Origin: Planctomycetota bacterium
GTDB taxonomy: Bacteria; Planctomycetota; UBA11346
Direction: 5' to 3'
DNA: 64,000 nucleotides
Assembly: GCA_031426335.1 (NCBI GenBank)
Contig: JANPLC010000241.1
Location: forward strand, 1,828 to 65,827
The first letter of the stretch is position 1, and each line of letters begins with the position of its first letter. The translations under genes were made by a program, and so were the position numbers. The notes below the pieces were generated by a model. The model worked only from the letters and a program-made list of their open reading frames with translations. It had not been told where the DNA came from and did not search any database. Shown one piece after another: positions 9,156 through 35,384 of this stretch.

Positions 9156-9209
9156 GGACGAACTCCGGTCGGGGTGGAAGCGGGCACAGAATACCAGTGG
9201 ATCAGGGCG

Positions 9210-11753: not shown

Positions 11754-11769
11754 AAAGTTACCCCGCCTG
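11754..11769. repeat. Left copy of a 16-bp direct repeat AAAGTTACCCCGCCTG (candidate att core)
   Basis: Identical 16-mer at 35369-35384. This copy forms the acceptor 3' strand and part of the T-stem of the tRNA-like sequence. Confidence 0.65.
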
Positions 11770-13949: not shown

Positions 13950-14480
13950 TCAAGCTTCCCATGGCAGAGGATAACCAAACGAAGCGATCTTCGGATCCTC
14001 ACGAAGAACATAGTCTTTATCCCCCGGCCATAGTGAATCATCATAATTCAAAGATCTCTCTAGTGCATTCTTAATAAATATGAACAGAGTCGAAGCCGCA
14101 ATATAGCATACGTTCGTTCGTCCTAGTATTCCTTCAACAAAGACGATTGGGGGATCCAATGGATTATCCCCCAATACAGCGACATAGTGATTTCCATGAC
14201 TATCACCAGCAATCGGCAAGAACGAAGCTGATCTGTATTCCGGAATCATACTTGCTATTTTTACGATCTCTTTGGCCCCCAAAAAATCACAGCCAATCAC
14301 TTCCGCTCCATCGACTTTCGTAAGCCATGACTGCAGATCAGCAGGGAACTCCATGCCGATTTCAATCGACGCTTCCTTAATTTCAATTGTCGATGCGCCG
14401 CGATATGCTATCGACCCACCAGAATACGTTCGGGATTTGGCTAGAATCTGGAGAAGAGTGTTTAAATTTGGCTTATTCAT
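13950..14480 (-). CDS. SMI1/KNR4 (SUKH-1)-type immunity protein
   Basis: 176 aa, starting 12 nt after the toxin stop with AGGA 4 nt upstream. 'IEIKEASIEIGMEFPADLQSWLTKVDGAEV' and 'FLPIAGDSHGNHYVAVLG...PPIVFVEG' fit the SUKH pattern (lP.dy..fl...nG ... ia.dg.Gn.y). Confidence 0.75.
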   Translation of the reverse strand: MNKPNLNTLLQILAKSRTYSGGSIAYRGASTIEIKEASIEIGMEFPADLQSWLTKVDGAEVIGCDFLGAKEIVKIASMIPEYRSASFLPIAGDSHGNHYVAVLGDNPLDPPIVFVEGILGRTNVCYIAASTLFIFIKNALERSLNYDDSLWPGDKDYVLREDPKIASFGYPLPWEA

Positions 14481-14492
14481 GATCCTGGCTTT

Positions 14493-17400: not shown

Positions 17401-20400
17401 TCACTAATGGACACTCGATAAACTGCCCCGACATCCTGGAAGACATTAGAACCAACCGCTGTCTCGGTTAGCGTGACGGTTGCTGGATTCTGACCAATGT
17501 ACTGGTTAGGGATCACTAGCGTGATGGCATCCGTTTGCGTAGCCCGAAGATCGCCATTGAGTTGAATTGCGACCGTCTCTCGGATAACCGGGTTAGGATA
17601 CGTACCATTCATAGTCGCCGAGAAATTGGCACTTCCCTGAATGCCGCTTTCATTCGCATCAGTCACGACATTCATCAAGTGCTCGCCTTCCCAGGCAGGG
17701 ATCGTCACGGAACCGGAGAATGCAAAGCTCTTAGAATACGGCTTCCAGTCTGTTGGACTGCCGCTGACTGTGGATAATGCAATATCCCCCACCCACTTAT
17801 TGTGGTGATAAACATGGACCGACTTCATCGCTGGGGCTTCGAGCAAATTCGCAACCGCATCGGTAACGGTGCCAGATAGTGATACCGTGGCGTTTACACC
17901 GCTGACAGTGACGCTCGGCGATACCGAGATATTAGGCACTGACATAGTTTTGGTAATCTGAGGCGGGTTTTGATCTAACTCTGTCTCATAATTGATTTTC
18001 ACAATCGCCAGCGCCTCCTTCATCCGATGCGCGCCGTTGGCTCCGGCGAATTGTCTGCTTAATTCATCTGGATAGGCGTGCACGGCTCCAACTTTTACAT
18101 CAACGCTGTAAAGTCCCGCCGCGACGTCGGCGCCAATAAATACAGTGAATTCCAATACTTGGTAAGTTCTCATATTTGAATTTTGATCCTGCTCATCTCG
18201 GAGTCGCTGGCTCACAATGGTGACCTTATCGGAACCCGGCTTGACTCCAGGTGCCACAGAAATTGCTTGCGTAACATCCTTCTCTGAGCTTCCATTAATC
18301 TTGATGAACCGAATGTAATCTGCTGACATTCGATTAAAGTCATCAAATCCAAATTCTTTTGAGAGAAAATTCCCCCTAATGGTGAAGGCGGCCGTCATTC
18401 CTGATGCCGCTATATTTGGCGAAAGATTTATAAAGTTGAATACTGGCATGGATTGCCCTACCGAGAATCCAAGAAATGTATCCGTATCCGTCCCATACTG
18501 ATAGGGGCCAAGGCCAACAGTTGCGTAGTCGTTGCCTACTCGCCAGATCTCATAATCGTTGATGTACGATCCAATCGGAGCCAGATCGACTGATGCCGAT
18601 AACGCATCTCCATTACGGGTGACGGGGTGATTTGCGTTTCTTCCGCGATCGACGCGAAGCACTGGGAGCGCGCTCGGATCTCGCACCTGTGAAAGAGACG
18701 GGAAATTAAACTGAATTTCCTGTCGCTTCATGCCTTTTTTAAATGCCGGCTCGTAATTTAATACTGCGGGGCGATAATATCTGTCTGTTCCTGACCCCGG
18801 AGAATAGGGATAATTTTGAATGACCCCGCCATACAACATCGATGCGACATCGATCCCATTTCCCGCAAATGTGACTTGGGTTTTGAACGCCTTTGCGACG
18901 CCCAATAATGGATCGAAGGTCGCAGGATTGACCGTAATTGACGTAACTTGATGGCTATCATTATAGCCATAGTCATACCGTTGTCTTATGTCAAAAAATC
19001 CACCTGGCTCTGACAGGGAGAAAGTTTGAATGACTGACGTTCCTGTCAGCGAATTATACCCGGCCTGTTTAAATGTTGTCGTTCCATGTGCTCCCGAAGC
19101 GGGGTCCGTAAAGGTCGGCAGTCGGCTAAAATTTCCATAGCCAACATAATCTTGGGGCTGAAGGCCACGGAATTCATACTTTTTCTTGACGATATTTCCA
19201 ATCCAGTCCCTAAAGTAATAGGTATCTGTTTTGGCAATCTGATCTTTCTCCGCACCTGTGATATTAACAGGATTGTTCAACGTGAAGGACTGGCCCATTT
19301 GACCACTCGTAGGTTTACTCGGGACGCCTTGCCATGCCTCTTCTGGGTACCAGCCCATAGATAGATCGCTGGGCCAAGAGAGCCAATAGACGGGCGAGGT
19401 GTAACTATAGACGGACTCTGTTGCTGCTTCGACCGATGGATCCACCAACATCGCATCGACATAAAATAAATCCTTTACCTTCTCTGGTGGTACGGGATAA
19501 GGCTGATATGTATCCTCGAGGTAATTACCACATCTATCACTTATATTAACTGCATAGAAGGAGGTGTAACTCCTTGTGTTTAGCGAAAATGGCGTGTGAA
19601 ATCCGTTCAGCTTCCACCCAATAAATTCTCCTCCTTCGTCTACAATATTACTTTTTAGCAGAGGCGCATTATTCTTGTCAAAGACTTTGAACGACGATGA
19701 ATTTTTCAGTCCAGTTACTTCATCTGGCGCCTTGATGGTGACTGAAAAGTCCTGGGCATTGAAGCAAAGTCTTTGCCTATACTTGCGGAGATTCCCGTTC
19801 CCGGTGAACCCGAGTTCTGGGTTGGAATTGAGGAAGATGAATTTTTCTCGCTGATATGCGGATGTTTTTAAAGGTCCGTTCGAAATAACCAATGGCTCAG
19901 TGGGGCTGTCCCACAATGATTTGTCGGCGAGTATTTCGAGCTTAGGCGGCGAGCGATCTACCACGAGTCTTTCTGATAAACGGATAGTTTGCATTGCATT
20001 TTCTTGCGCTCTGGAGGCGTTGGCATATGCGACAAACTCAAAAATCCCTTCGCTAGCGAACTTGAATGACGCCGTTCCGCTAGATCCCGGTATTCTATAT
20101 TCCTGGCCATCCGATGAGCTTACGATTATTTCGGATACGACTCCTCCTCCATAAGATTGAGCTGAAGCGGTGATGAGCACCGGGGTCGAAGGATTTCCGC
20201 CTGTGTTCGTAAAGGAGAAGTTTTCGCCTTTGATTTCACCGTGCTTGTCACCAGTCAAAGAACTGTCTAAGTAGGCAATTGATAGAACTGGCGGCGCCAG
20301 AGGCGTGCCATCTGGGCTCCCCTGTTCTGTCGTTTCCGATCCGGTCGGCCAACGAAGAACAGCGATTTTCTTTGGCCCTAACACTCCGCGGGCATCCTGA

Positions 20401-23400
20401 TATTGCAGAATAATGGAGGCGGTGGTCGTACCGGCTGCTGCCAATGAAGCCCTAATGGCAAACCCGCCGTTGGTTAACGTAGACACCAGAATCAACCCAG
20501 GAGTTGTGGTAGTCGCGAGAACAGCTGTGATATCATGACCATAGGGTACGATCCCTGAAGCCTCTACGACTAACCCTTTTCCATACTGATAGGTAACTGC
20601 GGCAGCGGGCAATTCGTCGCTGTATAGTGTGATTGCGGCGACGGCGCCATCGCTGCCTAGATTAAAATTGCTGCTAGTGCCAAGAGTGACGTCAATCGAT
20701 TCGGCGGTCTCAATTTCACCATCATCGCGCGGCGTGATCGTGATTAGCGAACTGGTTTGGTTAGCCAGGATGGTGACCAATCCGGTAAGGCTGAGGTAGT
20801 CGATGCCGGGTGTGGCCGAACCTCCGACGGTATACGGCACGGTTAGTGTCGTAGTCGAGGGGGCCGACCGCGTCACGGTGAACGTGGCAGTGGTCAGTCC
20901 GGCCTCTGTTGCGACGTTGTCGGTGGCAGAGATACGCACCGTTGGCCGTTCATCGTCACCGATCGTTACGGTTGCACTGCTGTCGATTCCAGGTGTGAAT
21001 GCGCCGGTGACGAGCGTGACGATCACGGTCTTGTCGCCGTTGGCCGTGGCATTATTTACCGGGGTGATGACAAGGTCGGCCGTAACCTCGTTGGCCGCGA
21101 AGGTGATGGCACTGACGTTGGGGTTGAGGGTGTAGTCGGTGCCTAGCGTGGTGCTGGCGGTACCAGTGCGCAGGAAGGGGACGCTCAGCGTCGTGGTGGT
21201 ATCGCCCGTGCGCGTGAATCGAACCGTCCCGGTGACGGGCGTCGCGCCTTCGGCCGCATTCGGCTGGAGCGCCACCACGGTCACCGTGGGGAGGTCATTG
21301 TCAGCGATAGTCACCGTGGCGTTGGTGGTGGCACCAAGGCTGTAGCCGGCTCCTGCCACCAGGGTAACCTTCACGGTTTCGTTGACCTCGGGTAGATCGT
21401 CGTCCGTCGGCGAGATGTAGAGGTCTTTGGTGGTCACGTTGGGGCCCAGCACGATCGGCCCGGTCAGCGTGCTGTAATCGCTACCCGCGGTTGCCGTACT
21501 GCCCGTCGTGGAGATGCCGATCGAGATCGTGGTCGTGGGGTCGCCGGTACGCTGCAGGGTCAGCACACCCAGCGCGCCGCCTTCGACTGCTTGGGCAGCG
21601 GTGGCGGCGATGCTGACAACTGGCGGCTCATTGTCGCTGATGCTAATCTGGGCTTGGGCTTGACCCACCCGGTAGGTCGCCTGCGGCACCAGGGTGAGAA
21701 TCACGGTTTCCGCGACTTCCGCGCCGGAGTCGTTGACCGGCGTAATGTTGATGGGGGCCGATTCCTGTCCGGCGAGAATCGTTACCGTGATGGTGCCAGT
21801 ACCGGTGATGCTGGTTGGCGTGGCCGTGTAATCCGTCAGCGCGGTGGCCGTGCCGGCGCGGGTCAGTGTAACCGTCAACGGATTGGCCGTCGAGCCGCTG
21901 CGCGTCAGCATAAACGTACCCGTATCCGGGCCGGTTTCGCTGACCGCAGCATCGGACACTGCCAAGTCGACGATCGGGAAGTCGTCGTCATGCAGGATAA
22001 TCGCAACGCTGCTGGTGATGATGCCATAGGAGCTGGGTCCAATGGTGGCGGTGATGGTTTCGTCACCTTCCACCGTCGTGTCGTCACGGTTGGTGGTGAT
22101 CGACACGGGTGGCGCTGAGGCATTGCCGGTAGGAATAGTCAATGTGCCCGAGGGAACCGAACTGCTGTAATCCACGTCTAATGTGGCCCCCGACAGGGCG
22201 AACGCGACATTCAGCGCGGGCCCGCTAAAATCACCCGTCCTGGTAACGGTCAGCGTTACTTGCTCATTTGCATTTTCCGTGACCTCGGTGCGGGAAGCCG
22301 TGATCGTCAACGTCGCATCTTCGATCGACGTGCTGGCCGACCAGGAACCGCTGATCGCAAACGGCACCGTGGTGGACGCCTGCAGCAGGAGGATTGCGGT
22401 CTCCGTGCCTTCCACCAACGCGTCCGCCTTCGCCGCTACCGAGATGTCGACGAACGTTGCGTTGGCCGGGATGGTCGCCGTGGTAATCACTGCGGGGGTA
22501 GCGGTGAAATCTGTATTTAGCACCGCATTGCCGCTCCATTGAACTGGAATGGCGAGCGCGCTCGTCGACGTATTGTTTCGGGAAATGCGGATTTTGCCCT
22601 GATTGGCGGTGTTGGGCTCCTTCACCTCGGCGTCGGTGGCTGCGATGGTAAGGGTGCAATCCTTGATGGTGGCGGTCGCGCTGGGCGTGGCACCAATGTT
22701 GTAGGTTGGCACGCCGATCAGGGTCAGCACCACCGTTTCGTCCGCTTCGGTGATCTGGTCACCCAGTGCGGTGAGCGTCACCGTGGTGGAGGTGGCATTC
22801 GCAGCGATGGTCGCGGTGCCGGACAGGGCGGTGTAGTCGAGGCCAGGGGTCGCGGTGCCGCTGACCTGGTACGTGACCGTCAGGGCTGCGGTGGTCGCGG
22901 CTGGGCGGGTAATGGTGAAGGTGGCGTTGTCACCACCGGGTTCGACCGCCGTCGCGTCCGTGGCGCTGATCGTCAGGGTTAGAACTTCGTCATCCGTAAT
23001 GGTGACCGTGGCACTGGCGGCGGCTCCAATGGTGTAGGTCGCCGTTGGTGTGGTCGGGATGATGGTGGCGATGACCGTTTCCGGGCCTTCAACGAGTGCG
23101 TCCTGCACCGGGGTGATGGTCAGGGTAGCCGTCGCCACGCCGGCATTGAAGGTGACCGTGGTTCCGGTGGGGTTTCGCGTGTAGTCACCGCCGGCCGTGG
23201 CGGTGCCGGTGATCGCGACGGAGACGGTCAAGGCATTGGTGGTGCTGACACGCGTCAGCGTGAATACGCCATTGGTGGGTGTGGCCGCTTCGGTCGCGTT
23301 GGGCGTGGTGGCGGCAATGGTGACCACATCATCATCACGAATGGTCAGAGTGGCGACGCTGGGGGTGCCGACGGTGTATCCGGTACCGGCAATCACGGTC

Positions 23401-26400
23401 ACTACGATGGTCTCATCCACTTCGTGGAGGGAATCCTGCTTGGCCACGACCGCCCGCGTCACGGATGCGACGCCAATCGGGAAGGTGATCTTGGTGCCCG
23501 TGTCGGTCGGGTCGGCGTAGTCGGTGTCCACGGTCGCCGTCGAGCCGGTCAGGCTGAGATTCGCCGTCAGGGCTGCTGCCAGCGAGCCGGTCCGGGTGAA
23601 GGTGACGGCGCCATAGTGCGTGCCGTCTTCGGTGACCACTGGGTCGGTGGCCGCCACCTGCACGGTGATGGCGTCGTTGTCAGTGATGGTGACGGTGTGG
23701 ACTTTGATGGTGTCCAGGGCGCCGTTCACCGGTGCACTCAACGTGATGATGGCGGTCTCATTGGCTTCCACCGTGGCGTCATCGCGCACCTGCAGGGACA
23801 GGATCTTGCTGGTCTCGCCTGGGGCGAAGATCAGGGTGCCGTTTGGCAGGTAATAGTCGTCACCATTGCCGGTGGCGGTGCCGGTCAGGGCGTAATTGAC
23901 CGTCGTGGTCAGCGAGTAGGGGAACGACAACACGACCGGGATATCGATCTGGGTTCCGGATTCGCCGACTGATGAGGACGCGGCCTGGAAGGCGATCAGC
24001 GGGGCATCGTTGTCCTTGATGGATACGGTGGCTGCTGCTGGGGTTCCCACCACATAGCCAGTGCCGGAGGCCACCGTCAGCGTGACGGTCTCGTCCGGTT
24101 CGGAGAGCGTATTGTCGACGGCAGTCAACGTCACCGTGGTGCTCATCTGGCCTGCAGCCAGATTCACGGTCGCCGGCAGTGCCGTGAAGTCGGAGCCCAC
24201 CGTTGCCGTGCTGGTGGTCGTCAGGTTGATCGTCAGCGCCGGGGACGTGACACCGGCCGTGCGGATGATGGTGAACAGACCGGTGTCGGGACTGCCTGGC
24301 TCTGACGCGATCGCATCTGTGGCGGCGATCGAGATGCCTTGTTCGTCATCCAGGATGGTGACGGTCGCGGCGTTGGGGCTTCCGACCGTGTAGCCGCTGC
24401 CCGTGGCGATGGTCAGAGTCACCGTCTTGCTGGCTTCCAGCAACGTGTCGTTGATCGGGGTTACGGGGACCGTGGTCGTGGACTGACCGGTAGCGAAGGT
24501 CGCCGTGGCCGGCAGAGCCGTGTAGTCGGCTCCCGCACCCGCTGATCCTCCCGGCGTGACCGTGACCATCAGCGCGACGCCGTTGAAGCCGCTGCGCGTC
24601 AGGGTGAAAGTGCCGGTATTCGACGGCTCAGCTGCATTCGCATCCGTCGCCGCAATGGTGATCGTCGGGAGGTCGTTGTCGGCGATGGTCACGGTCGCGC
24701 TGGCGGTACCGATGAAATAAGCCGCATTGGCCGTGATGGTCGCAATCACCGTTTCGGAACCTTCGTAGGCAGTGTCATTGACCGGCGTGGCCGTGACCGT
24801 CGCCGAGGCGGCGCCGGCCGAGATGGTCACGGAGGTCGTGATGGCGCCATAGTCGCTCACCACCGCCGTACCGCCAAGAGTGAAGACGACTGTCAGCGGG
24901 TTGGTGGTGATGCCCGTGCGCGTGAACGTAAAGGTGCCGTTGTCGGGGCCGGTCTCCGACGCCGCCGCGTCGGTCGCGGCGACCGACACCGTCTGTTCGT
25001 CGTCGACGATCGTCACCGTCCCGGCGATGGTGCCGCCGAGGTAGTAGCCGGTGCCAGTGGTCAGCGTCACGATCACCGTCTCGTTCGGTTCGTTCAGCGC
25101 GTCGTTGACCGGTGTCAGCGTGATGGTCTTGCTCGCAGCACCCGCAGGGATCACCACCGTGGTCCCCAGTGACGTGAAGTCGCTCGCCGACGCCGTCCCG
25201 CTCACCGCCAAGTTGACGGTCAGGGCCGCCGTGGTCACACCCGTGCGCGTCACCGTCCAAGTGCCGGTATCTGGGGTGGCCGATTCCGCTGCGTTGGCAT
25301 CCGTCGCGGCGATCGTCACCGTCTGTTCATCGTCGACGATGGTGACGGTGGCAGCCGACGGTGAACCCGCCGTGTAACCGGCAGCCGTTACCACCGTGAC
25401 GATCACTGTCTCGTTGGGTTCGTTGAGCGCATCGTTGGTCGGCGTCAGGGTCAGCGTCTTGTTCACCGAACCCGCCGGGATCACCACGCTGGTCCCCAGC
25501 GACGTGAAGTCGCCCGCCGACGCTGTCCCACTCACCGCGAAGGTCACCGTCAGAGCGGCGGTCGTCGCGCCCGTGCGCGTGAAGGTGAACGTGCCAGTAT
25601 CCGGGGTGGCCGATTCCGTCGCGTTGGCATCCGTCGCCGCGATCGTCACCACCGCATCGTTGTCGGCGATGGTCACCGTCGCCGCCGACGGCGATCCGAT
25701 GGTATAGCTGCCCGTCGTCAGGGTCATGATCACCGTCTCCGACGGCTCACCCAGCGTGTCGTCCACCGGCGTCACCGTACGCGTCGCCGTCGCCGAACCG
25801 GCAGCGATCACCACCGGCACGGTCACTGACGCGTAGTCACCCGACACGGCAGTGCCGCCCAGCGTGACGTTCACCGTCAGCGCCGCAGCGGTGGTCCCCG
25901 TGCGGGTGATGGTGAACGTGCCGGTGTCCGGCCCCGTCTCCGACGCCGCAGCGTCGGTGGCGGCAATCGATACTCCCTGCTCGTCATCGATGATGGTCGC
26001 CGTGGCGTTGGCGGGGCTGCCCACGGTGTAGCCGGTGCCGGTGGCCAGGGTGACGATCACCGTTTTGTTCGGCTCGGTCAGCGTATCCTGCAGCGTAGTC
26101 ACGGTCAGCGTCTTGGTTGTCGCTCCCGCAGGGATCACCACGCTGGTACCCAGCGCAGTATAGTCGCTGCCCGTCGCGCTGCCCGTGACGGTGAAGTTCA
26201 CCGTTACCGCCGAGCTGGCGATGCCCGAACGCGTCAGTGTGAAGGTCGCGGTGTCGCCCCCCTCGGTCGCGGTTGCGTCTGTCGCCGCGATGTTGATCGA
26301 CGGTGGGCCGACCACGCTGACCACCGCCGTGCCGGTCTTGCCGCCGCCTTGGACCGTCACGTTGTGCGGACCGCCCGCCGTCGCCGATGCTGTGAACAGG

Positions 26401-28805
26401 CCACCGGAAGTGATGGTGCCGCTCGCCGCTGGGGCCACCCACGGACCAAAGGTCGGCTGACTTACCATTGCCTGGCCAAACTGGTCGTTGGCCACCGCGG
26501 TGAACTGCTGAGTTCCGCCCGTGGCTACCGACACCGGGGTCGGTGTCACCGCTACCGTGGTGATGGTCTGGTTGACGATGACCGTCACGTCGCTCGGCGC
26601 CGAGGTAGCATTGTTCGCATCCTTCGCCGTCGCGCGCAAGACGTAGGTCCCCGCCCGGGTGAAGGTCGCCGTCACGCTCTTGGCCGCGTTGGTGTTATTG
26701 GCGCTGAACGCCACCGAGGCCGGTGGCGTACCTGTCGTGGCCCAAGTATAGATCAGCCCTGGCTCTCCCGCGTCATCATCGCCGTAGGCAGTCAGCGTGG
26801 TCGTGGTACCGGTGACCGGGCTGGCACTGGATTTCGCCGCGATGCTGATGATCGGCGTGCCGTTGGTGATGGTGACCTGCGCGGTGCCGGCGGTTGGGAC
26901 GCCGGTGCCGGTGGCGGTCACCGTGTATGGGCCGCCAAGGGTCTGGCTGGCCAGGAATACGCCTGGGGCAGTAGTCGTGTAGGCGCTGCCGGCCAACACC
27001 ACCGTGCCGACGTCCTGCGTCTGCCACGGCCACTGCATCGTCGCCAGGGCGGTGGTGCCGATGAGGATTTGCACGTTGTCGAACGCCGCCGTGGTCAACG
27101 TGGTCGCATTGTGCGACGTCACGGCCAAGCCCATGTAGACCGAAGCCCCCATGGTGACCGTCTCGCTGCCGATGAAGGTCCACGTCGCCCCATCGGTGGA
27201 GACGTAACCACTGAAGAGCGATCCGCTGCGCACCAGCTTGATCCAGCGTGGCGCCGCGTGTCCGGTGAGGATGGTGTTGACGCTGGTTCCGGCAGTGGTG
27301 GTACGGCGTTGGAACAATGCGCCCGACGCGGCGGTGACGTTGACCATCGCATTGCGCGCGTCCGCGGCTAAACCATCGCGAATCATCAGGCCGGCCTTCG
27401 CCCACGCGTCGGTGTTGGTCAGACTCGTGACACGGGCAATGAGCGTCACATCGCCCGCGGGCAGCGGACGGTGCATGAAGCGAAACTGGTCGCTGGTGCC
27501 CCAGATATCCGTGCCGGAGGCCTGGACGGTATAGGTCCCGGTCGACGGGGTGTAGGTGCCCGAGCCCACTGGCGTGGTGATGTTGATATCCTGCTGCGTC
27601 CAGCCACTGGGTAGAGCACCAGCCGTGGCCGTCGCCGGGGTAATGCTGACATTGCTGAAGCGGGCTTGGGCGCGCACACCTGACTGGTGGGAGGTCACCG
27701 CCAAGCCGACGCGCACCGTGGCGGCCATGGTCACCGTGTCGGTGCCGAGCTGCGTCCAGGTGGTGCCGTCGGGGGAGGAATAACCCGTCAGCGTGTTGCC
27801 GACACGCGTCAGGCGCACCCAGTACGGCGCCGCCTGACCGGCGGTGATGACGTTGGTGCTGGTGCCGCCCACAGTGGTGCGGCGCTGGAACAACGCGCCA
27901 GCGGCGGCGGTCACGTTGGCCATGGCGTTAATCGCGTTGTCCGTCAGGCCGTCGCGCATCATCACGCCGGCCTTCGCCCACGCGTTGGTGTTTTCCAGCG
28001 ACTCAACCTTCGCGGTGATGGTGCCGTCGCCGGTCAGCTGCTGGTGTACGAATTGGAAGCCATCGTTGGTGCCCCAGATGTCGGTGCCGGAAGCTTCAAG
28101 GACATAATTGCCCTTCGGCAGGAAAGTGCCGCCGCCCGCAGTGGTCCAACTGATCGCCGGCTGGGTCGACAGCGCCGCGGCGAACTGGTCGCGTGCAGTG
28201 CCAGTGAATGCCACCAGACCGCCGCGCACCGGCGTTGCCGTCGCGGGTGTGACCACCACATCCGTGGCCGTTGCGTTCACCGTCATCGTCACTGGGTAGG
28301 TGTTGGCACTACCTTCCGCGCCAGTCGCGGTCACCGTCAGCACGTAGGTGCCGCTCAAGCTGAAGGTCGCCGTCCAGGTTTTGCGCAAATCGGGCATCGC
28401 CGCGCCGGCTACGAACGTCGCCGTACCGGGGCCGGACGTTTTCGCCCACGAGTACGTCACCGTATTTTCGCCCAGGTACCACTGCACCGGCGTCACGTAC
28501 AGCGTCGTGGTCTTCGCCGTCACGGGTGATGGCGATGCGGTCGGGGCAGCGGGGAAGTACGGCACCAACTGGCATTTGAAGCTGGCGCCAGAGGCCACTT
28601 TGAAGTTGTTCAAAAGCAGGCGGCCTGTCTTAACCGTCACTACGGCCGTGGACGCGAGCACCGTCCCGACGGTCGCTGAAGTAGTCGTATTCGCGGGACC
28701 GTAGGTGACTGTTCCGCTGACAGTAGGCGGTAGGGGGACGTCAGCCGCCTTTGCCCAAGGCCAGATCAGTGACAACACCGCCAGAAGGCAGAGACGAATA
28801 GGCAT
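14493..28805 (-). CDS. Giant secreted polymorphic toxin (Sec signal, Ig-like domains, 2 ConA/DUF1349-like lectin domains, ~17 Calx-beta repeats, ~1,700 aa unassigned, pretoxin-HINT, C-terminal nuclease-like toxin)
   Basis: Uninterrupted 14.4-kb ORF (the ORF track extends to 28859). Probable start is ATG 28805, 'MPIRLCLLAVLSLIWPWAKA', with AAGGAA upstream. Domain motifs are listed in the sub-features. Confidence 0.9.
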   Translation of the reverse strand: MPIRLCLLAVLSLIWPWAKAADVPLPPTVSGTVTYGPANTTTSATVGTVLASTAVVTVKTGRLLLNNFKVASGASFKCQLVPYFPAAPTASPSPVTAKTTTLYVTPVQWYLGENTVTYSWAKTSGPGTATFVAGAAMPDLRKTWTATFSLSGTYVLTVTATGAEGSANTYPVTMTVNATATDVVVTPATATPVRGGLVAFTGTARDQFAAALSTQPAISWTTAGGGTFLPKGNYVLEASGTDIWGTNDGFQFVHQQLTGDGTITAKVESLENTNAWAKAGVMMRDGLTDNAINAMANVTAAAGALFQRRTTVGGTSTNVITAGQAAPYWVRLTRVGNTLTGYSSPDGTTWTQLGTDTVTMAATVRVGLAVTSHQSGVRAQARFSNVSITPATATAGALPSGWTQQDINITTPVGSGTYTPSTGTYTVQASGTDIWGTSDQFRFMHRPLPAGDVTLIARVTSLTNTDAWAKAGLMIRDGLAADARNAMVNVTAASGALFQRRTTTAGTSVNTILTGHAAPRWIKLVRSGSLFSGYVSTDGATWTFIGSETVTMGASVYMGLAVTSHNATTLTTAAFDNVQILIGTTALATMQWPWQTQDVGTVVLAGSAYTTTAPGVFLASQTLGGPYTVTATGTGVPTAGTAQVTITNGTPIISIAAKSSASPVTGTTTTLTAYGDDDAGEPGLIYTWATTGTPPASVAFSANNTNAAKSVTATFTRAGTYVLRATAKDANNATSAPSDVTVIVNQTITTVAVTPTPVSVATGGTQQFTAVANDQFGQAMVSQPTFGPWVAPAASGTITSGGLFTASATAGGPHNVTVQGGGKTGTAVVSVVGPPSINIAATDATATEGGDTATFTLTRSGIASSAVTVNFTVTGSATGSDYTALGTSVVIPAGATTKTLTVTTLQDTLTEPNKTVIVTLATGTGYTVGSPANATATIIDDEQGVSIAATDAAASETGPDTGTFTITRTGTTAAALTVNVTLGGTAVSGDYASVTVPVVIAAGSATATRTVTPVDDTLGEPSETVIMTLTTGSYTIGSPSAATVTIADNDAVVTIAATDANATESATPDTGTFTFTRTGATTAALTVTFAVSGTASAGDFTSLGTSVVIPAGSVNKTLTLTPTNDALNEPNETVIVTVVTAAGYTAGSPSAATVTIVDDEQTVTIAATDANAAESATPDTGTWTVTRTGVTTAALTVNLAVSGTASASDFTSLGTTVVIPAGAASKTITLTPVNDALNEPNETVIVTLTTGTGYYLGGTIAGTVTIVDDEQTVSVAATDAAASETGPDNGTFTFTRTGITTNPLTVVFTLGGTAVVSDYGAITTSVTISAGAASATVTATPVNDTAYEGSETVIATITANAAYFIGTASATVTIADNDLPTITIAATDANAAEPSNTGTFTLTRSGFNGVALMVTVTPGGSAGAGADYTALPATATFATGQSTTTVPVTPINDTLLEASKTVTLTIATGSGYTVGSPNAATVTILDDEQGISIAATDAIASEPGSPDTGLFTIIRTAGVTSPALTINLTTTSTATVGSDFTALPATVNLAAGQMSTTVTLTAVDNTLSEPDETVTLTVASGTGYVVGTPAAATVSIKDNDAPLIAFQAASSSVGESGTQIDIPVVLSFPYSLTTTVNYALTGTATGNGDDYYLPNGTLIFAPGETSKILSLQVRDDATVEANETAIITLSAPVNGALDTIKVHTVTITDNDAITVQVAATDPVVTEDGTHYGAVTFTRTGSLAAALTANLSLTGSTATVDTDYADPTDTGTKITFPIGVASVTRAVVAKQDSLHEVDETIVVTVIAGTGYTVGTPSVATLTIRDDDVVTIAATTPNATEAATPTNGVFTLTRVSTTNALTVSVAITGTATAGGDYTRNPTGTTVTFNAGVATATLTITPVQDALVEGPETVIATIIPTTPTATYTIGAAASATVTITDDEVLTLTISATDATAVEPGGDNATFTITRPAATTAALTVTYQVSGTATPGLDYTALSGTATIAANATSTTVTLTALGDQITEADETVVLTLIGVPTYNIGATPSATATIKDCTLTIAATDAEVKEPNTANQGKIRISRNNTSTSALAIPVQWSGNAVLNTDFTATPAVITTATIPANATFVDISVAAKADALVEGTETAILLLQASTTVPFAISGSWSASTSIEDATLTITASRTEVTENANEQVTLTVTRTGDFSGPALNVAFALSGATLDVDYSSSVPSGTLTIPTGNASAPPVSITTNRDDTTVEGDETITATIGPSSYGIITSSVAIILHDDDFPIVDLAVSDAAVSETGPDTGTFMLTRSGSTANPLTVTLTRAGTATALTDYTATPTSITGTGTITVTILAGQESAPINITPVNDSGAEVAETVILTLVPQATYRVGQAQAQISISDNEPPVVSIAATAAQAVEGGALGVLTLQRTGDPTTTISIGISTTGSTATAGSDYSTLTGPIVLGPNVTTKDLYISPTDDDLPEVNETVKVTLVAGAGYSLGATTNATVTIADNDLPTVTVVALQPNAAEGATPVTGTVRFTRTGDTTTTLSVPFLRTGTASTTLGTDYTLNPNVSAITFAANEVTADLVITPVNNATANGDKTVIVTLVTGAFTPGIDSSATVTIGDDERPTVRISATDNVATEAGLTTATFTVTRSAPSTTTLTVPYTVGGSATPGIDYLSLTGLVTILANQTSSLITITPRDDGEIETAESIDVTLGTSSNFNLGSDGAVAAITLYSDELPAAAVTYQYGKGLVVEASGIVPYGHDITAVLATTTTPGLILVSTLTNGGFAIRASLAAAGTTTASIILQYQDARGVLGPKKIAVLRWPTGSETTEQGSPDGTPLAPPVLSIAYLDSSLTGDKHGEIKGENFSFTNTGGNPSTPVLITASAQSYGGGVVSEIIVSSSDGQEYRIPGSSGTASFKFASEGIFEFVAYANASRAQENAMQTIRLSERLVVDRSPPKLEILADKSLWDSPTEPLVISNGPLKTSAYQREKFIFLNSNPELGFTGNGNLRKYRQRLCFNAQDFSVTIKAPDEVTGLKNSSSFKVFDKNNAPLLKSNIVDEGGEFIGWKLNGFHTPFSLNTRSYTSFYAVNISDRCGNYLEDTYQPYPVPPEKVKDLFYVDAMLVDPSVEAATESVYSYTSPVYWLSWPSDLSMGWYPEEAWQGVPSKPTSGQMGQSFTLNNPVNITGAEKDQIAKTDTYYFRDWIGNIVKKKYEFRGLQPQDYVGYGNFSRLPTFTDPASGAHGTTTFKQAGYNSLTGTSVIQTFSLSEPGGFFDIRQRYDYGYNDSHQVTSITVNPATFDPLLGVAKAFKTQVTFAGNGIDVASMLYGGVIQNYPYSPGSGTDRYYRPAVLNYEPAFKKGMKRQEIQFNFPSLSQVRDPSALPVLRVDRGRNANHPVTRNGDALSASVDLAPIGSYINDYEIWRVGNDYATVGLGPYQYGTDTDTFLGFSVGQSMPVFNFINLSPNIAASGMTAAFTIRGNFLSKEFGFDDFNRMSADYIRFIKINGSSEKDVTQAISVAPGVKPGSDKVTIVSQRLRDEQDQNSNMRTYQVLEFTVFIGADVAAGLYSVDVKVGAVHAYPDELSRQFAGANGAHRMKEALAIVKINYETELDQNPPQITKTMSVPNISVSPSVTVSGVNATVSLSGTVTDAVANLLEAPAMKSVHVYHHNKWVGDIALSTVSGSPTDWKPYSKSFAFSGSVTIPAWEGEHLMNVVTDANESGIQGSANFSATMNGTYPNPVIRETVAIQLNGDLRATQTDAITLVIPNQYIGQNPATVTLTETAVGSNVFQDVGAVYRVSISEGGQTNAILVDTISATVEKNGEWYCEEVFTENGPSSLRFEALIVRSNAITAPTVMTYKVDLSGVLSPTVVNQIAITLPNHIAGPSPTPIALTETGADTKVFTATVGSTVIQVDLLGATTGVSIPASVKMSESKAVTANFIQIGGVTSTQYQYSTTITSDAPSFSLRSVSSAISPAQQETVTPYRVSIQAPSIIDTVITSHKWFQNGSRVDLIKKDDRYYVKDATTGNAMVFVDPAWAPVNGTVGTEGGEGEDEGPVTFSGTNDTIHLSVTIGIARSRLPTPVPDTYTVTVVVSPDAAQRISASVIGLNEEDTWTTQEVRGFDKTVQGSYQVTLKRQGAIQVAGNVTSDSLTPAEVKLARTNPKTFLDNKLMAWYLVQGENAETTGWVWNALDNPVLDDDIPLWTIPELLGAPEGNALSLASSVIAALTKDVVIPGVDLGVERIVQNAFIAHVGFGGTIRTWDLPEARAVYLWVAPHATYKSGDTDIPVGKKAGDLRYEKEGTFDLPAAIDAYNKANGNIHAAAEARREERMKIAREIGWELRPINEQTAMNGANQVLSAMNQLADVTAWAGYIGGGKRIVLPEGDATWAAVGVNGGFLLVNFVPFAKVGSVVGKSGKVLFKKVEESALPKARQAVRDFLPTETLVRASTKLICFVAGTRVKVSNGFKAIEDIRVGDMVWSRDERSGAEGLKHVEQTFMTTPATLIHLRYHRLDVGNMDGDASELVGTTTHPFWVKQLSAWVPMGELKPGYQLHMAGNECAVVESVRCEEAPIGQCFTTYNFSVADWQTYFVASSNSKEDSPSIWVHNVGGFCDKAWGRALAVLGRMGETRFFQTFTKLPKWQVSVMKAQLNRRQLSSLERDAVREAARRLWAERAGTKLLGGKGLKEAGYEVHHRIELQFSHLFPDNPNAIENVFTVKIEVHAKITKAWEEWLRLKGGVGNVTKAEVEAQAALIDGQFAQDAATFIAFP
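14496..14981 (-). other. C-terminal toxin domain, HNH/EndoVII-superfamily-like (xHH-type) nuclease candidate
   Basis: The last 162 aa after the HINT 'VHN'. 'GYEVHHRIELQFSHLFPDNPNAIENVFTVKIEVHAKIT' shows an HH...N...H spacing like the AHH/GHH/SHH toxin families. Family assignment is tentative. Confidence 0.5.
14982..15446 (-). other. Pretoxin HINT (PT-HINT / bacterial intein-like) domain
   Basis: 'CFVAGTRVKVSNGFKAIEDIRVGDMVWSRD...LVGTTTHPFWV...WVPMGELKPGYQL...TTYNFSVADWQTYFVAS...IWVHN'. It has the N-terminal Cys, a TxxH block and a terminal HN. Confidence 0.85.
20640..26300 (-). repeat. Coding tandem array of ~17 Calx-beta repeats (~333-345 bp units)
   Basis: Recurrent '...(I/V)AATDA.A.E....G.FT.TRTG....LTV...(V/L)(S/G)GTA..G.DY......V.I.AG....T.T.TP..D...E..ETV...L'. 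Adjacent units at 25051-25377 and 25396-25707 are near-identical. Confidence 0.8.
27060..28120 (-). other. Two tandem ConA-like/DUF1349-like lectin domains
   Basis: Duplicated 'Y.(L/V).ASGTDIWGT.D.F.F.H..L.GD....A.V.SL.NT.AWAKAG.M.RDGL....NAM.NVTAA.GALFQRRTT.....N......AP.W..L.R.G....GY.S.DG..W'. Confidence 0.55.
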
Positions 28806-28887
28806 GATAAGCGTTTCCTTCGAATAACAGGCAAGAAACATCGCATTGCCAAGTGACAACGGTCAAGTTGCCACCCAACTGATCACC

Positions 28888-30090
28888 TCACCACATTACG
28901 ACAACCAGACCTGGACGCCCTGGCCCGTCGGGGTTCCCCCCAGAACCATATCCCGCACCTGGTGATCCAAACATGTAGCCTGCACCAGCAGTTCCCGGGG
29001 CATAACCATAAAAGTTCCCATTGAGCGATACCGGCTGGCTATTCGTCCCTTTAGCCCCTTGGATTGCTAGGCCAGTTGCACCATTGAGTACCGCAGCCCC
29101 CCCATTGAGATATGTCGCCCCACTACAAATAATGAGGGATCCAAAGCTTGTTTGACTACCAGCTAAACCACCAATCCCCCCTCCAGTACCAACTGTGATC
29201 GCATAGCTTCCTTGAGGGCTAGAAACGACAGCCCAAGCAAATCCACCGGCATTTCCTGGTTCAGCAAGTGTGGCATAACTTCCATCCTGGTTAGAACTCG
29301 TCTGACTGGGAACCCCGCCAGAACCACCCCCCAAAGCAATCACTTGAATTTGTGTGACACCAGCAGGAACGGTAAAGGTACCGCTGGAGGTAAAGAATTG
29401 GACGCCCTTCGAAGAAACCATCAGGGGCAATTGTGATGCCAAGACTTTCCCACTCGCATCGAGCGTGGCCAAGCCGTTCGCAGCCCCTTTCTCATCGCCC
29501 CGCACCGCCTGCGCGCCAGTTGCTGGCGCAGTGCGATTGATCACCACGTCGCCTGCTGTAACCGTTCCAGCAACATTTATCGGCGTGCTAAAGCTAGTGT
29601 TTGTCTTGGTCACGCGGACAGCACGAACGACGCCATCTGGGTATAGATCAATGCCGCCATTGGTCTGGCGGTTGACGATTTCAATCGGGACGTCCGAACT
29701 CGGACGCATATTCAGCTGGCTGGCACCTGCCCAGATAAAGCCCCCGCCAATGACAACTTGTCCTGCCGTTACCGTAGTGGGCGGGGATTTGGTGACGACT
29801 AATTGGCGCCCACCCACTTCGTCGTAGACCGAAAAGGTTTTCCCAGCTTGACGCCACTGGATAAACGGACCTAGAGCATCTGCTGCCCAGGTTCCCTGCA
29901 TCAGTCCGTTCAGGTAGGAATCAAATGCAAGACCAGTAGCAACCCGTCCGCCTCCAATGCGAACCTGCGTCGACGTCGGTGCGACCGGAACTGCACCGGC
30001 CACAATGACCGCACCAGCGGGATCAACAGTCAGCACATCCTCTGCCTGGAGTGCTCCGATGGCCAAGAGGCTAATTAAGATTCGTTTCAT
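28888..30090 (-). CDS. Secreted phage-tail-fibre-like protein with C-terminal glycine-rich domain
   Basis: Start at the internal ATG 30090 ('MKRILISLLAIGALQA' signal peptide). 'NGLATLDASGKVLASQLP' is a tail-fibre hallmark. 'FFTSSGTFTVPAGVTQIQVIALGGGSGG...ITVGTGGG' is the glycine-rich domain seen in phage fibres. Confidence 0.7.
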   Translation of the reverse strand: MKRILISLLAIGALQAEDVLTVDPAGAVIVAGAVPVAPTSTQVRIGGGRVATGLAFDSYLNGLMQGTWAADALGPFIQWRQAGKTFSVYDEVGGRQLVVTKSPPTTVTAGQVVIGGGFIWAGASQLNMRPSSDVPIEIVNRQTNGGIDLYPDGVVRAVRVTKTNTSFSTPINVAGTVTAGDVVINRTAPATGAQAVRGDEKGAANGLATLDASGKVLASQLPLMVSSKGVQFFTSSGTFTVPAGVTQIQVIALGGGSGGVPSQTSSNQDGSYATLAEPGNAGGFAWAVVSSPQGSYAITVGTGGGIGGLAGSQTSFGSLIICSGATYLNGGAAVLNGATGLAIQGAKGTNSQPVSLNGNFYGYAPGTAGAGYMFGSPGAGYGSGGNPDGPGRPGLVVVMW

Positions 30091-30148: not shown

Positions 30149-31150
30149 TCAAAACCCCATAACTGCCACGGTGACTATCGAGGCATTGGTCGCTGCCAGA
30201 GGACCATTGATGCAAACAAAGGAAACGCTCGTTGTCGTCAATGCTCCGACTTGATTGAAATAGGCCGTCATCGCTTCTGGCCCACACGTAATAATTGGGA
30301 CATAGGAAACCGAAGCGAACGGCGTTGTGAAGTTTACTCGGTACTGACCAGTGGCGAGGCGATCCACCGAGGACACATTATAAGCACCACGAACCGTAAG
30401 TGCCGCGGCCTTCCCATCAAAATTAACCCACGCCTTTATGCTGCCCGCGTTGATACGTGGGTCATCACCCCGAACAACTTCGGTCGCAGCCGCTGGGGTA
30501 GCACGACTAATCACGGCGTTATTCGAAGAAACCGTACCTGCAAATAAATCTCCCCCAGTTCTAATCACGCCACCGCCAATTGCGGTCTCGTCCACCTTCA
30601 CCTGTGCTGCTTGTGGCTGGGGGCCGTAAAACGTGGTGTAGCCGTCCGGGGTAATCTCCATCCGCGTGATCGCATTCGCCGTCGGTGCGGGCGAGGTCGT
30701 TGGCGTTGTGGAGAATTTCAATCCGGCTCGTTGACCCGCGCCGCCTGGCAACCATCCGCTGATTATGTAGAGATTGGGGTCTGCCTCACTGTAGCGTCCA
30801 CCACGAAGGCCACCGCTGTTCAAATCGCCAATGGAGAGGAGGCCTGACGTCATCACGCCTCCTCCTCCTATTGCGGTCCCTGTGGTCCCAGTGGGCAGCG
30901 TCGTGGTAGGCATCGGTCCGTAAAAAATGGATGGGGTTGAATCCCCGGCGATTCCAACCAGGAGGCGCTGAGCAAAGGCGGCTCCGCCGCCAGAAATCCG
31001 CGATTCCGTTGATGTATTGACGCCACCAAGCGTTCCGCCCGCTGTTACTAGGCTACCGGCTACCTGGACGGTGCCACTTGGGTCAACCGTCAAGGCATCG
31101 GCAGAATGGAGAGCGCCTATTGCCAGCAGGCTTAAAATAATTTTTTTCAT
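30149..31150 (-). CDS. Secreted phage-tail-fibre-like protein (paralogous N-terminus to 28888-30090)
   Basis: Signal peptide 'MKKIILSLLAIGALHS'. Shares 'LTVDPSGTVQVAG' with its neighbour. C-terminus 'VVRGDDPRI...IKAWVNFDG...LTVRGAYNVSSVDRLATGQYRVNFTTPFASVSY' matches a common tail-fibre C-terminal module. Confidence 0.7.
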   Translation of the reverse strand: MKKIILSLLAIGALHSADALTVDPSGTVQVAGSLVTAGGTLGGVNTSTESRISGGGAAFAQRLLVGIAGDSTPSIFYGPMPTTTLPTGTTGTAIGGGGVMTSGLLSIGDLNSGGLRGGRYSEADPNLYIISGWLPGGAGQRAGLKFSTTPTTSPAPTANAITRMEITPDGYTTFYGPQPQAAQVKVDETAIGGGVIRTGGDLFAGTVSSNNAVISRATPAAATEVVRGDDPRINAGSIKAWVNFDGKAAALTVRGAYNVSSVDRLATGQYRVNFTTPFASVSYVPIITCGPEAMTAYFNQVGALTTTSVSFVCINGPLAATNASIVTVAVMGF

Positions 31151-31210: not shown

Positions 31211-31939
31211 TTAAAATCCATTGGCCGCTCCATCGGAAATCGGCACCGGCGCTTCGGTGGGTGGCTGCGAAGGAACCGCTTCCGACTGTGGTGCGCCGGG
31301 ACGCTGGTTGTCCACAGGCGGCTGGAACCCCGGCAGAGAATAGGCGCCCATGCGGCGCTGACGCGCTTCCTCAATCGCCTTTCGGGCTTCCATGAAGAAT
31401 CGCGATGATGTCGGGCGGCCGGACTGCGATTCGTCCAACACCGCCCAGCCGGCACGCATCAATTCGACCTGCAGCGATGTCCGATGGTGGGCACCTGGCC
31501 CCGCAGGTGGTGGTGGCGACGCAGGATCCACCGGTGCGGAAAAATCCCGCAGAATCCAAGCCTTGGCCAAGCCAAAGGCGTCTGTTTCCAATCGTTGACC
31601 GCTCACCTCGATCATCACGTCGCAACCTGGCGGGCAGAGTTCCTTCAATTTAGTCAGCGCGTGCTCGGGTGGGCCGATCAGGCGGATGCCCTCCAATTGC
31701 AGCGGAATGGTCGTGGGCAGACCGCCTACTGTGGCTTCAACCGTGATGCGCAAGGCGCTTTGCACGTCGACCACCCGCACCGGCATTGATTCCATGGCCA
31801 CTGACGGACCGCCGAAGATGAGAGCCGACGCCAACCCCATCGACATATACTTGACCACTCGACTGACGTCGACCGAGAACATGCCCACCCCGCCTTGTTT
31901 GGCGGGGCGGCGTTCTAGAAACGGCCAGCACCTAGTCAA
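31211..31939 (-). CDS. Exported SNase (thermonuclease)-like OB-fold protein, catalytic motif degenerate; Pro-rich C-terminus
   Basis: 'VRVVDVQSALRITVE...IPLQLEGIRLIGPPE...DAFGLAKAWIL...SLQVELMRAGWAVLDE' follows the SNase pattern (V.DGDT..V....vRL.GIDaPE ... eLvr.GlA). The DGDT and GIDxPE acidic residues are replaced. Confidence 0.45.
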   Translation of the reverse strand: MTRCWPFLERRPAKQGGVGMFSVDVSRVVKYMSMGLASALIFGGPSVAMESMPVRVVDVQSALRITVEATVGGLPTTIPLQLEGIRLIGPPEHALTKLKELCPPGCDVMIEVSGQRLETDAFGLAKAWILRDFSAPVDPASPPPPAGPGAHHRTSLQVELMRAGWAVLDESQSGRPTSSRFFMEARKAIEEARQRRMGAYSLPGFQPPVDNQRPGAPQSEAVPSQPPTEAPVPISDGAANGF

Positions 31940-32387: not shown

Positions 32388-32586
32388 GGAACACGCGGAA
32401 CACTAGGAACACGGTGACGGGCTTCAGAGACTCACACCTACCAGTCGGATGTCAGCGCTCTGGTCTGCGCCCGCGTGACCTCTGATCGATGCTCGCTAGG
32501 CACTTACTCGACCGTTCACTAAACACTGACGATAAGCACACAAACACCGGCTGGTCCCTCATTGTTCTCAGTGTTCCTGGTGTTCC
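32388..32586. promoter_or_regulatory. Iteron-like repeats (candidate replication origin/operator of the island)
   Basis: GGAACAC x3 at 9-bp period (32388-32394, 32397-32403, 32406-32412). Inverted GTGTTCC x2 at the same period (32571-32577, 32580-32586), plus a degenerate copy at 32562-32568. The ~150-bp spacer contains AAACAC variants. Lies immediately 3' of the primase gene. Confidence 0.4.
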
Positions 32587-33914: not shown

Positions 33915-33918
33915 GGGT

Positions 33919-34185
33919 TCACCGCAGGTGGGGATGAGGAAAAAGTTCTTCAACCAAGGCGCCGTGCACAGGATGGCGGCGACGAACCACGGCTGGCCAA
34001 GGTTCGCCATCGCAATCCACCAGCACGCGTTCGCCGGGCAGCAGGGTCGCGCCGGTGGCGAACTCCGCTAACCGCTGAACGTTGCCAGCGGTCAGCACGG
34101 TCACGCGTTCATCACTGGCGATGACCGCCACGCGAGGAGCGGGCTCGCCAGGAAAGCGCAGTGATGATGCTGGGGAATGGGGCAT
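33919..34185 (-). CDS. Hypothetical protein
   Basis: 88-aa ORF in the operon between the HTH genes and the primase. It ends 4 nt before the primase start. No motifs recognised. Confidence 0.45.
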   Translation of the reverse strand: MPHSPASSLRFPGEPAPRVAVIASDERVTVLTAGNVQRLAEFATGATLLPGERVLVDCDGEPWPAVVRRRHPVHGALVEELFPHPHLR

Positions 34186-35368: not shown

Positions 35369-35384
35369 AAAGTTACCCCGCCTG
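35369..35384. repeat. Right copy of the 16-bp direct repeat AAAGTTACCCCGCCTG (candidate att core, junction between island and prophage)
   Basis: Identical to 11754-11769. On its right, 43 bp separate it from the stop of the prophage distal tail gene. Confidence 0.65.

Follow-up and report, generated by a model that had tools for sequence, protein, structure and literature searches.

A giant polymorphic toxin of a Planctomycetota bacterium with a signal peptide as its only recognised trafficking feature: conserved exported partners and a candidate type II secretion route

Polymorphic toxins that have only a signal peptide for trafficking and that are processed by HINT domains have been catalogued as "T2SS/Sec-dependent", after the type II secretion system (T2SS) and the general secretory (Sec) pathway (Zhang et al., 2012, Biol Direct 7:18; PMC3482391, Table 1). 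The same catalogue describes lineage-specific N-terminal domains that are accompanied by an upstream secreted partner, as in MafB-N and MafA, for which surface anchoring was proposed (PMC3482391). For the TANFOR toxins of Bacteroidetes, the way out of the cell was deduced from the genome's sole two-step system and from secreted proteins encoded alongside (PMC7073777). The exit of signal-peptide-only polymorphic toxins from diderm cells has been a standing question since the 2012 catalogue, and for MafB the obvious candidates were eliminated by experiments that did not reveal the route. Here, the question is considered for a giant polymorphic toxin gene in a 64-kb stretch of DNA (64,000 nucleotides, called the window below) from a Planctomycetota bacterium (GenBank assembly GCA_031426335.1, contig JANPLC010000241.1, positions 1,828 to 65,827). 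The route that we favour for the toxin is Sec followed by a T2SS, with the exported proteins encoded next to it as accessories, and we give it a probability of roughly one half.

The toxin is encoded by a single open reading frame (ORF) on the minus strand of the window (14493..28859). The ATG at 28805 was accepted as the start because an AAGGA Shine-Dalgarno sequence is located about 10 nt upstream of it, whereas the in-frame ATG at 28841 has none. The N-terminus (MPIRLCLLAVLSLIWPWAKA, followed by AD) has a single basic residue, then a hydrophobic core of 13 residues, then AKA, and thus all three parts of a signal-peptidase-I signal. A lipoprotein or Tat signal was ruled out, with neither a lipobox nor a twin arginine present. 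The hydrophobicity scan of the toxin (Kyte-Doolittle, 19-residue window, threshold 1.6) did not identify a second hydrophobic stretch above the threshold.

The Pfam matches of the toxin are only PKD, two DUF1349, Calx-beta and PT-HINT/Hint_2, and the sole NCBIfam match is of the Calx-beta type. Neither database identified a TPS, PAAR/VgrG/Rhs, RTX, LXG/WXG or autotransporter domain, a type IX secretion system (T9SS) tail or a C-terminal sorting tag in the toxin. No secretion genes were found within the 64-kb window. The original prediction had described an ordinary Sec signal peptide on a toxin of 4,770 residues, no TPS, PAAR/VgrG/Rhs, RTX or type I secretion system (T1SS), LXG/WXG or sorting motif, no secretion genes nearby, and two exported fibre-like proteins and an SNase-like protein encoded upstream. 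These descriptions were borne out by the sequence and the L007, L009 and L010 orthologues for the signal peptide, by the Pfam and NCBIfam searches for the motifs, by the gene content of the whole window, and by signal peptides, PHROG matches and an AlphaFold model of an SNase fold for the upstream proteins. The hidden Markov model search for a secretion-targeting domain, which had been proposed there as the refuting test, found none in the toxin.

The orthologous loci were retrieved via the genes neighbouring the toxin. The toxin of L007/L008 exhibits 74% identity to the window toxin over 1,893 aligned residues. The toxin of L010 (5,043 residues) has a matching N-terminal architecture, PT-HINT and an AHH tip, and L009 provides the first 48 residues of a further orthologue. 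The signal peptides of the L007, L009 and L010 orthologues differ in sequence, yet the mature N-terminus is nearly invariant. Retention of a signal peptide despite sequence divergence is the pattern expected if the signal is functional and is cleaved.

The more distant relatives of the toxin share its large central module (Table 1). All seven relatives with a complete N-terminus start with a signal peptide (P0027, P0028, P0033, P0034, P0065, L026 and P0044), where that of P0044 looks lipoprotein-like. Six of the seven were scanned with Pfam, and they exhibit lectin, Ig, PKD and Calx modules and none of the known secretion domains TPS, PAAR, Rhs, LXG and RTX. The scaffolds after the signal peptide vary (LamG with Ig, PKD, DUF1349 with Calx-beta), and one scaffold type probably includes a PA14-like domain, judged by sequence alone. 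The scaffolds are followed by the shared central module, then by PT-HINT or PT-TG, and then by varied tips.

The secretion systems were inventoried across the whole genome, as the original prediction had proposed. The assembly consists of 494 contigs (5.68 Mb, 63% guanine-cytosine (GC) content) and is 85% complete; neither a match to FtsZ (tblastn) nor a 16S motif was found in it, which together with the presence of DUF1080, FecR and ECF genes is a weak hint of a PVC-type bacterium, perhaps a planctomycete. Seven secretin genes and at least twelve TolC-like genes were identified, and the organism is therefore taken to be diderm. Contig C337 encodes a GspG-type pseudopilin (PF08334, T2SSG), GspF, GspE, minor pseudopilins and a secretin (8340-10511) that has three Secretin_N domains and a GspD N0 domain. 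This cluster, confirmed with Pfam, is a complete T2SS with secretin, ATPase, platform protein and major pseudopilin. Further secretins adjoin PilM/N/O/P-like genes. Three of the secretin genes are in tandem on C278 (5992-13762), downstream of a PilM-like gene, and encode 849-885 residues each, which is an unusual triplication. The genome also has a type VI secretion system (T6SS) sheath gene and encodes Rhs-type toxins. TpsB (ShlB/TpsB) has no match in the genome, and the autotransporter barrel (PF03797) and the T9SS tail (Por_Secre_tail) were found neither in the toxin nor in the whole genome. Among the searched routes that lead on from Sec across the outer membrane, the secretin-based one is the only one that was found in this genome.

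A C-terminal tag is found on about 15 large Sec proteins encoded in the same genome; it consists of a Gly-run with an invariant Cys (GGGCGLG[SGA]), followed by a hydrophobic helix and a cluster of Arg residues. The tagged ORFs are located, for example, on C100, C76, C239, C189, C191, C71, C216 and C238, and further ones on C251, C336, C403, C443 and C466; several of these have Calx-beta or PKD domains like the toxin. The tag was unrecognised by NCBIfam on the two tails submitted. The gene for one tagged protein, a Calx-beta protein of 1,095 residues with a signal peptide (C239:5348-9921), immediately precedes a TolC-like gene in the same orientation. The tag has the design of the tripartite MYXO-CTERM and GlyGly-CTERM tags, which need T2SS to reach the surface (Haft, 2023, bioRxiv 10.1101/2023.06.07.544157), and its link to T2SS is by analogy only. 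By that analogy, the tagged Calx-beta and PKD proteins would support a T2SS that moves such proteins, where the toxin itself does not have the tag.

DUF1349 is also found elsewhere in the genome, at the C-terminus of secreted glycosidase-like proteins and in Rhs toxins. Beside the T2SS secretin (C337:10708-12216) there is an orphan-looking fragment with DUF1349, the end of an Rhs core (DPLGYVDGMNLYAY) and a C-terminal tip, and no start codon with a signal peptide was found for it. A fuller Rhs protein with an internal DUF1349 is encoded on C55.

A T2SS reads folded features of its substrates rather than a linear motif, and a substrate would therefore not have a visible targeting domain. The export of the toxin can be pictured in two steps. 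In the first step, which is well supported, the unfolded precursor would pass through Sec and signal peptidase I would cut off residues 1-20. In the second step, the folded toxin would pass like beads on a string through the outer membrane via a secretin-based type II system, for which the GspD/E/F/G cluster on C337 or one of the six other secretins is the candidate exporter. The co-transcribed SNase-fold and fibre proteins would act as accessories that hold the toxin on the producer surface or choose the target cells; an accessory role is likely because their linkage to the toxin is real. Outside the producer, the cassette of central module, PT-HINT and nuclease tip would enter a neighbour cell, PT-HINT would free the tip, and the cytoplasmic SUKH protein would shield siblings. 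The sequence evidence covers the signal peptide, the lack of any other targeting domain, the presence of a T2SS, the absence of type V secretion system (T5SS) and T9SS markers, and the conserved partners. From these we infer the use of the T2SS and the roles of the partners and of the central module.

The original prediction had named a chromosomal T2SS-type pathway as one option, and this option is now the best supported, as the T2SS cluster and six further secretins are present and TpsB, autotransporter and T9SS tail were not found. Several points weigh on the other side. The toxin would be assigned to the T2SS by elimination, and the genome in which the elimination was performed is 85% complete. 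The toxin is about 480 kDa, which is about three times the size of the largest known T2SS substrates. The host order is uncultured, the organism is known from a metagenome-assembled genome alone, and the roles given to the partners are putative. In addition, MafB, the closest analogue that has been studied, is secreted independently of both the PilQ secretin and MafA (Jamet et al., 2015, PMC4287609), and therefore Sec-only toxins can use another route.

Table 1. Features of the toxin operon and its island, with positions in the 64-kb window.
Feature	Position	Strand	Basis
Left copy of 16-bp direct repeat	11754..11769	+	exact repeat
Tyrosine integrase of island	11971..13308	+	Pfam Phage_integrase E=4.4e-16
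SUKH-1 immunity gene, 12 nt downstream of toxin	13950..14480	-	Pfam SMI1_KNR4 E=1.5e-7
Giant polymorphic toxin gene, 4,770 amino acids and stop codon	14493..28805	-	ORF, translation, Shine-Dalgarno, Pfam architecture
C-terminal toxin tip with His-His motif, residues 4613-4770	14496..14969	-	sequence
PT-HINT autoproteolytic domain, residues 4453-4612	14970..15449	-	Pfam PF07591 E=1.3e-21
Central module of 1,719 residues (2734-4452), 47-51% GC, no Pfam match	15450..20606	-	sequence landmarks
About 17 Calx-beta repeats, residues 836-2733, 59-67% GC	20607..26300	-	Pfam E=2e-93
Ig-like/PKD modules and two DUF1349 (lectin-like jelly-roll) domains, residues 116-835	26301..28460	-	Pfam
N-terminal domain, residues 21-115, near-invariant in three orthologues and confined to the closest orthologues	28461..28745	-	alignment
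Predicted Sec signal peptide (signal peptidase I type), residues 1-20	28746..28805	-	sequence
Exported tail-fibre-like protein 1, 400 amino acids, signal peptide, Gly_rich_2 head	28888..30090	-	Pfam, PHROG
Exported tail-fibre-like protein 2, 333 amino acids, signal peptide, different head	30149..31150	-	PHROG
Exported SNase-fold protein, 223 amino acids, Pro-rich tail, C-terminal Gly-Phe	31211..31882	-	AlphaFold model
VapE-type primase/helicase of island	32568..34010	-	Pfam VapE-like E=9.3e-20, PHROG primase/helicase
Right copy of 16-bp direct repeat, 44 bp from stop codon of prophage tail J	35369..35384	+	exact repeat

The features of the locus are shown in Table 1, where the module borders in the toxin were set by sequence landmarks. 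The locus encodes a polymorphic toxin and a cytoplasmic immunity protein; the SUKH-1 immunity protein is placed in the cytoplasm because it has no signal peptide. The tip is probably an HNH-type nuclease, judged by its motif. The Calx-beta array consists of direct repeats of about 330 nt. The region that was considered originally (20640-28805) spans the signal peptide through the Calx-beta array. The N-terminal domain (residues 21-115) has no Pfam match. Among the 48 genomes of the family, the toxin's own genome is the sole match to profile positions 1-60. When the toxin N-terminus was searched against one genome per species, the sole match was from Furfurilactobacillus (Lactobacillaceae), which was judged irrelevant. 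The AlphaFold model of residues 21-240, for which three near-identical sequences were the input, was unusable, with a predicted local distance difference test score (pLDDT) of 41.8.

For the central module, 1,200 residues were compared with 1.84 billion representative proteins, and only 51 relatives were identified; the toxin family is therefore considered rare. The module has no match in Pfam or NCBIfam, its profile matched nothing at E<=1 among PDB sequences, and a word-based homologue search returned only the window protein itself. Among the 401 genomes of the phylum that were sampled, 11 match the profile of the module, three or four of them strongly. The search of 2.9 million viral contigs identified no relatives of the central module or of the fibre family. 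The blocks NGAHRMKEALA, WKPYAKHFTFSG and GWVWN...PLWTLP are conserved in the module and its 51 relatives, and a Gly-rich hydrophobic stretch (ATWAAV..GG.L.V) is located directly before HINT or PT-TG in the family. The central module would merit its own family model.

Different tips are found on the shared central module. P0027 has the tip of the window toxin, L010 has AHH, P0033 has a WHH/colicin-DNase tip, and P0065 has PT-TG with another tip. Within the single ORF of the window toxin there is a sharp break in GC content. The stretch 13950-20606, which covers the central module, HINT, the tip and the immunity gene, has 47-51% GC, whereas the scaffold (20607-28805) has 59-67% and the genome average is 63%. 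The break indicates that a cassette of about 7 kb was gained recently. The central module is found on unrelated N-terminal scaffolds, where the Sec signal is the sole feature common to the scaffolds. Export from the producer would therefore need nothing beyond the general pathway and a system that accepts folded proteins. It appears that a cassette of about 7 kb, well beyond the tip alone, moves between unrelated scaffolds. Because the central module travels with the warhead in this manner, it would serve the entry into the target cell and not the exit from the producer.

The toxin operon is carried as cargo by an integrative island, which lies next to a prophage. The 16-bp direct repeat brackets an island of 23.6 kb, and none of 100 shuffles reached three matches. 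The left repeat is located within a fragment that is like the 3' half of a tRNA, with T-arm and acceptor end (11754-11812); no intact tRNA was found in the window using ARAGORN. The island consists of the integrase, the immunity gene, the toxin, the two fibre-like genes, the SNase-like gene, the VapE primase and small regulators, and no other large unexplained ORF was found in it. Promoter and terminator scans around the operon gave sites that are no commoner than in shuffled sequence. To the right of the island is a siphovirus-like prophage with tail J, tape measure, major head protein, protease, portal and terminase. Since the right repeat is 44 bp from the stop codon of tail J, the two elements are arranged either in tandem or one within the other. 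To the left of the island are ECF sigma and FecR-glycosidase genes. The FecR anti-sigma domains are fused to a GH5 cellulase and a 3-keto-disaccharide hydrolase (DUF1080) (window 398-2449 and 9210-10718), and the ECF sigma gene (10715-11278) adjoins these fusions.

The toxin as a virion component or a prophage moron was ruled out by the island's own direct repeats and by the non-phage flanks of the orthologues. The prophage could still matter if the toxin passes through Sec to the periplasm and is then released non-specifically, in vesicles or by lysis such as prophage induction, where no dedicated outer-membrane step is required. MafB toxins do occur in vesicles (PMC4287609), the neighbouring siphovirus-like prophage looks complete, and no targeting domain is visible in the toxin by Pfam and NCBIfam. 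However, the homologous loci exhibit no association with phage genes. The orthologous modules adjoin YdjC, HEAT-repeat, chorismate-binding and oxidase genes instead, and the viral contigs contain no relatives of the fibre family or the central module. The long adhesin-like arrays and the exported fibre partners also suggest an ordered display on the surface. Non-specific release is thus considered unlikely.

The upstream neighbours were compared with their homologues. The fibre alignment consists of six proteins from four loci. The aligned proteins all have a signal peptide, and the segments DVLTVDPxGxVxVAG and VVRGDDPR are conserved. Their C-terminal heads differ and are Gly_rich_2, Collar/Gp10_C or a small beta domain, a variation that resembles that of phage receptor-binding proteins. 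The partner proteins are built in part from phage tail-fibre parts. The metagenome scan with the fibre alignment matched only the contig that was already known. The model of the SNase-fold protein was built with 16 homologues and has a pLDDT of 76.5, and it matches staphylococcal nuclease with a template modelling score of 0.70-0.77, normalised by the target. The positions of the catalytic arginines of the nuclease are not conserved in the alignment of the family, and the protein is therefore taken as a binding protein. No lipobox was found in the three upstream partner proteins.

Members of the SNase-fold family invariably end in Gly-Phe, which follows a variable tail rich in Pro and reads ...ANGF in most of them. 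An aromatic C-terminus is also found in five of the six aligned fibres (VMW, VEW, MGF), where the exception is the Collar-type fibre of L010. The aromatic ends of the fibres and of the SNase-fold family may be a shared docking or sorting feature. With a predicted soluble nuclease fold and two fibres, none of the three neighbours resembles a channel. A role of the neighbours as an outer-membrane pore was ruled out by the folds found.

The order of SNase-fold gene, one or two fibre genes and toxin is kept in the window, L007/L008, L009 and L010. The genes upstream of these four linked loci are unrelated and encode VapE, YdjC, a chorismate-binding enzyme and a HEAT-repeat protein. In another genome of the same genus (G405:C65), an SNase-fold gene with 47% identity is located directly before a giant signal-peptide gene, and the fibre gene between them is absent. 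For this giant gene, identity is 56% in the DUF1349 pair and 67% in the Calx-beta repeats. In five loci, including G405:C65, the SNase-fold gene thus precedes a giant DUF1349/Calx gene, and the linkage that the original prediction had asked to be examined in other genomes is conserved. In G412:C673, a distant SNase-like gene is divergent from a giant Calx-beta gene. The SNase-fold homologues of L011, L012 and G402 (50-57% identity) have no toxin neighbour. The SNase-fold family is patchy (4 of 48 genomes of the order), and no second copy was found in the toxin's own genome. Where flanks could be read, the more distant relatives of the central module lack neighbours of this kind. The linkage of the toxin and its partners is genuine, and it is strongest for the SNase-fold gene, not obligatory for the fibres and confined to a single lineage.

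A genuine linkage raises the possibility of a dedicated pathway, independent of T2SS, in which the exported neighbours, the central module, or both bring the toxin through the outer membrane or insert it there. The five linked loci have different flanks, with G412:C673 as a sixth case, and the patchy distribution of the SNase-fold family is as expected of a part of an accessory system. The invariant Gly-Phe end of that family and the aromatic ends of the fibres fit this possibility, as does a central module that has no known relative in Pfam, NCBIfam or the PDB. MafB also sets a precedent for a factor other than PilQ or MafA (PMC4287609). On the other side, the neighbours are not channel-like, and no further large ORF of unexplained nature is present in the island. 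The presence of zero to two fibre genes per locus and their swappable heads are a better fit to targeting than to export. The SNase-fold homologues also occur without a toxin gene, the distant relatives of the central module lack such neighbours, and a module that travels with the warhead across scaffolds fits target entry. A dedicated pathway is therefore considered unlikely, with some support from the linkage. The suggestion in the original prediction that the neighbours are part of the apparatus is not supported as far as a channel is concerned, given the soluble nuclease fold and the swappable fibre heads, but the linkage is real and an accessory role is likely.

A more radical possibility is that the SNase-fold protein, the fibres and the toxin with its 1,700-residue module form a new kind of toxin-delivery device that is Sec-dependent, surface-assembled and contact-dependent. 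The toxin would then be a fibre-guided filament that uses no numbered secretion system, either at the exit from the producer or at the entry into the target, and we regard this picture as speculative and quite unlikely. It is very improbable that the toxin uses T6SS, T1SS or T5SS and that the apparent signal peptide is irrelevant: the genome does have a T6SS sheath gene, many TolC-like proteins and Rhs-type toxins, but the signal peptide is conserved in the orthologues and family members, a T6SS loads from the cytoplasm and is a poor fit to a cleaved Sec signal, the toxin has no PAAR, VgrG, Hcp, Rhs, TPS, RTX or C-terminal T1SS signal, its C-terminus is the tip, and TpsB and autotransporter genes were not found in the genome. 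The route through Sec and then a T2SS, with the neighbours as accessories, remains the one that we favour.

The window toxin is closest to the T2SS/Sec-dependent class. The signal peptide is the sole trafficking feature in both, and no signature secretion gene is located nearby. Both also have PT-HINT, an HNH-type tip, SUKH immunity and tips that are exchanged by recombination. The window toxin has a signal peptide only, a pre-toxin domain with a variable tip, and an adjacent downstream immunity gene for which protection is predicted, as members of this class do. The class is defined by default, and the window toxin is far larger than its members, with a module of 1,700 residues outside Pfam. 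Unlike the class, it has conserved exported partner genes. Calx-beta is absent from the full text of the catalogue (Zhang et al., 2012, PMC3482391).

The locus is also similar to the MafB/MafA system of Neisseria. Both exhibit a diderm host, a Sec signal followed by a lineage-specific N-terminal domain, an upstream exported partner gene, a variable tip with an immunity gene, and a location in a genomic island (PMC4287609). However, MafB is small and has no repeats, and MafA is a lipoprotein that is dissimilar to the SNase-fold and fibre proteins. Pfam found no match to DUF1020 (MafB-N) in the toxin, and the resemblance to Maf is in organisation only. The TANFOR toxins are likewise large toxins with a Sec signal and no recognised outer-membrane signal, whereas they differ in their N-terminal domain, their phylum and their inferred system (T9SS). 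CdiA and CdiB (type Vb secretion system, T5bSS) provide the example of a very long, filamentous toxin that depends on Sec and whose C-terminal nuclease is accompanied by a pre-toxin region and an immunity gene. Unlike CdiA/CdiB, the window toxin has no TPS domain, FHA repeats or VENN motif, its genome has no CdiB/TpsB gene, and release would be via HINT. Like CdiA, the window toxin is probably presented on the cell surface. As judged from its domains, the toxin does not belong to the cargo of the T5a, T5b, T6, T1 or T9 secretion systems, nor to the Maf proteins proper.

Comparing these systems with the original prediction, we have identified three things that it omitted, namely that the toxin is island cargo beside a prophage, that its neighbours are derived from tail fibres, and that a named toxin class exists for it, with a close precedent in MafA/MafB; its interpretation stands in part. 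The puzzle is already known in kind from the T2SS/Sec-dependent class, and the locus sharpens the question. To that class it adds a well-delimited family with a Sec signal, variable lectin/Ig scaffolds and a shared module of 1,700 residues. What is new here is the central module as the signature of a family, the extent of the cassette that is exchanged, and partners that have an SNase fold or derive from tail fibres. The locus shows that a toxin cassette of about 7 kb, far beyond the tip, is swapped between scaffolds, and it illustrates how the receptor-binding parts of phages have been recruited into a secreted bacterial weapon that is otherwise comparable to the signal-peptide-only toxins of the 2012 catalogue.

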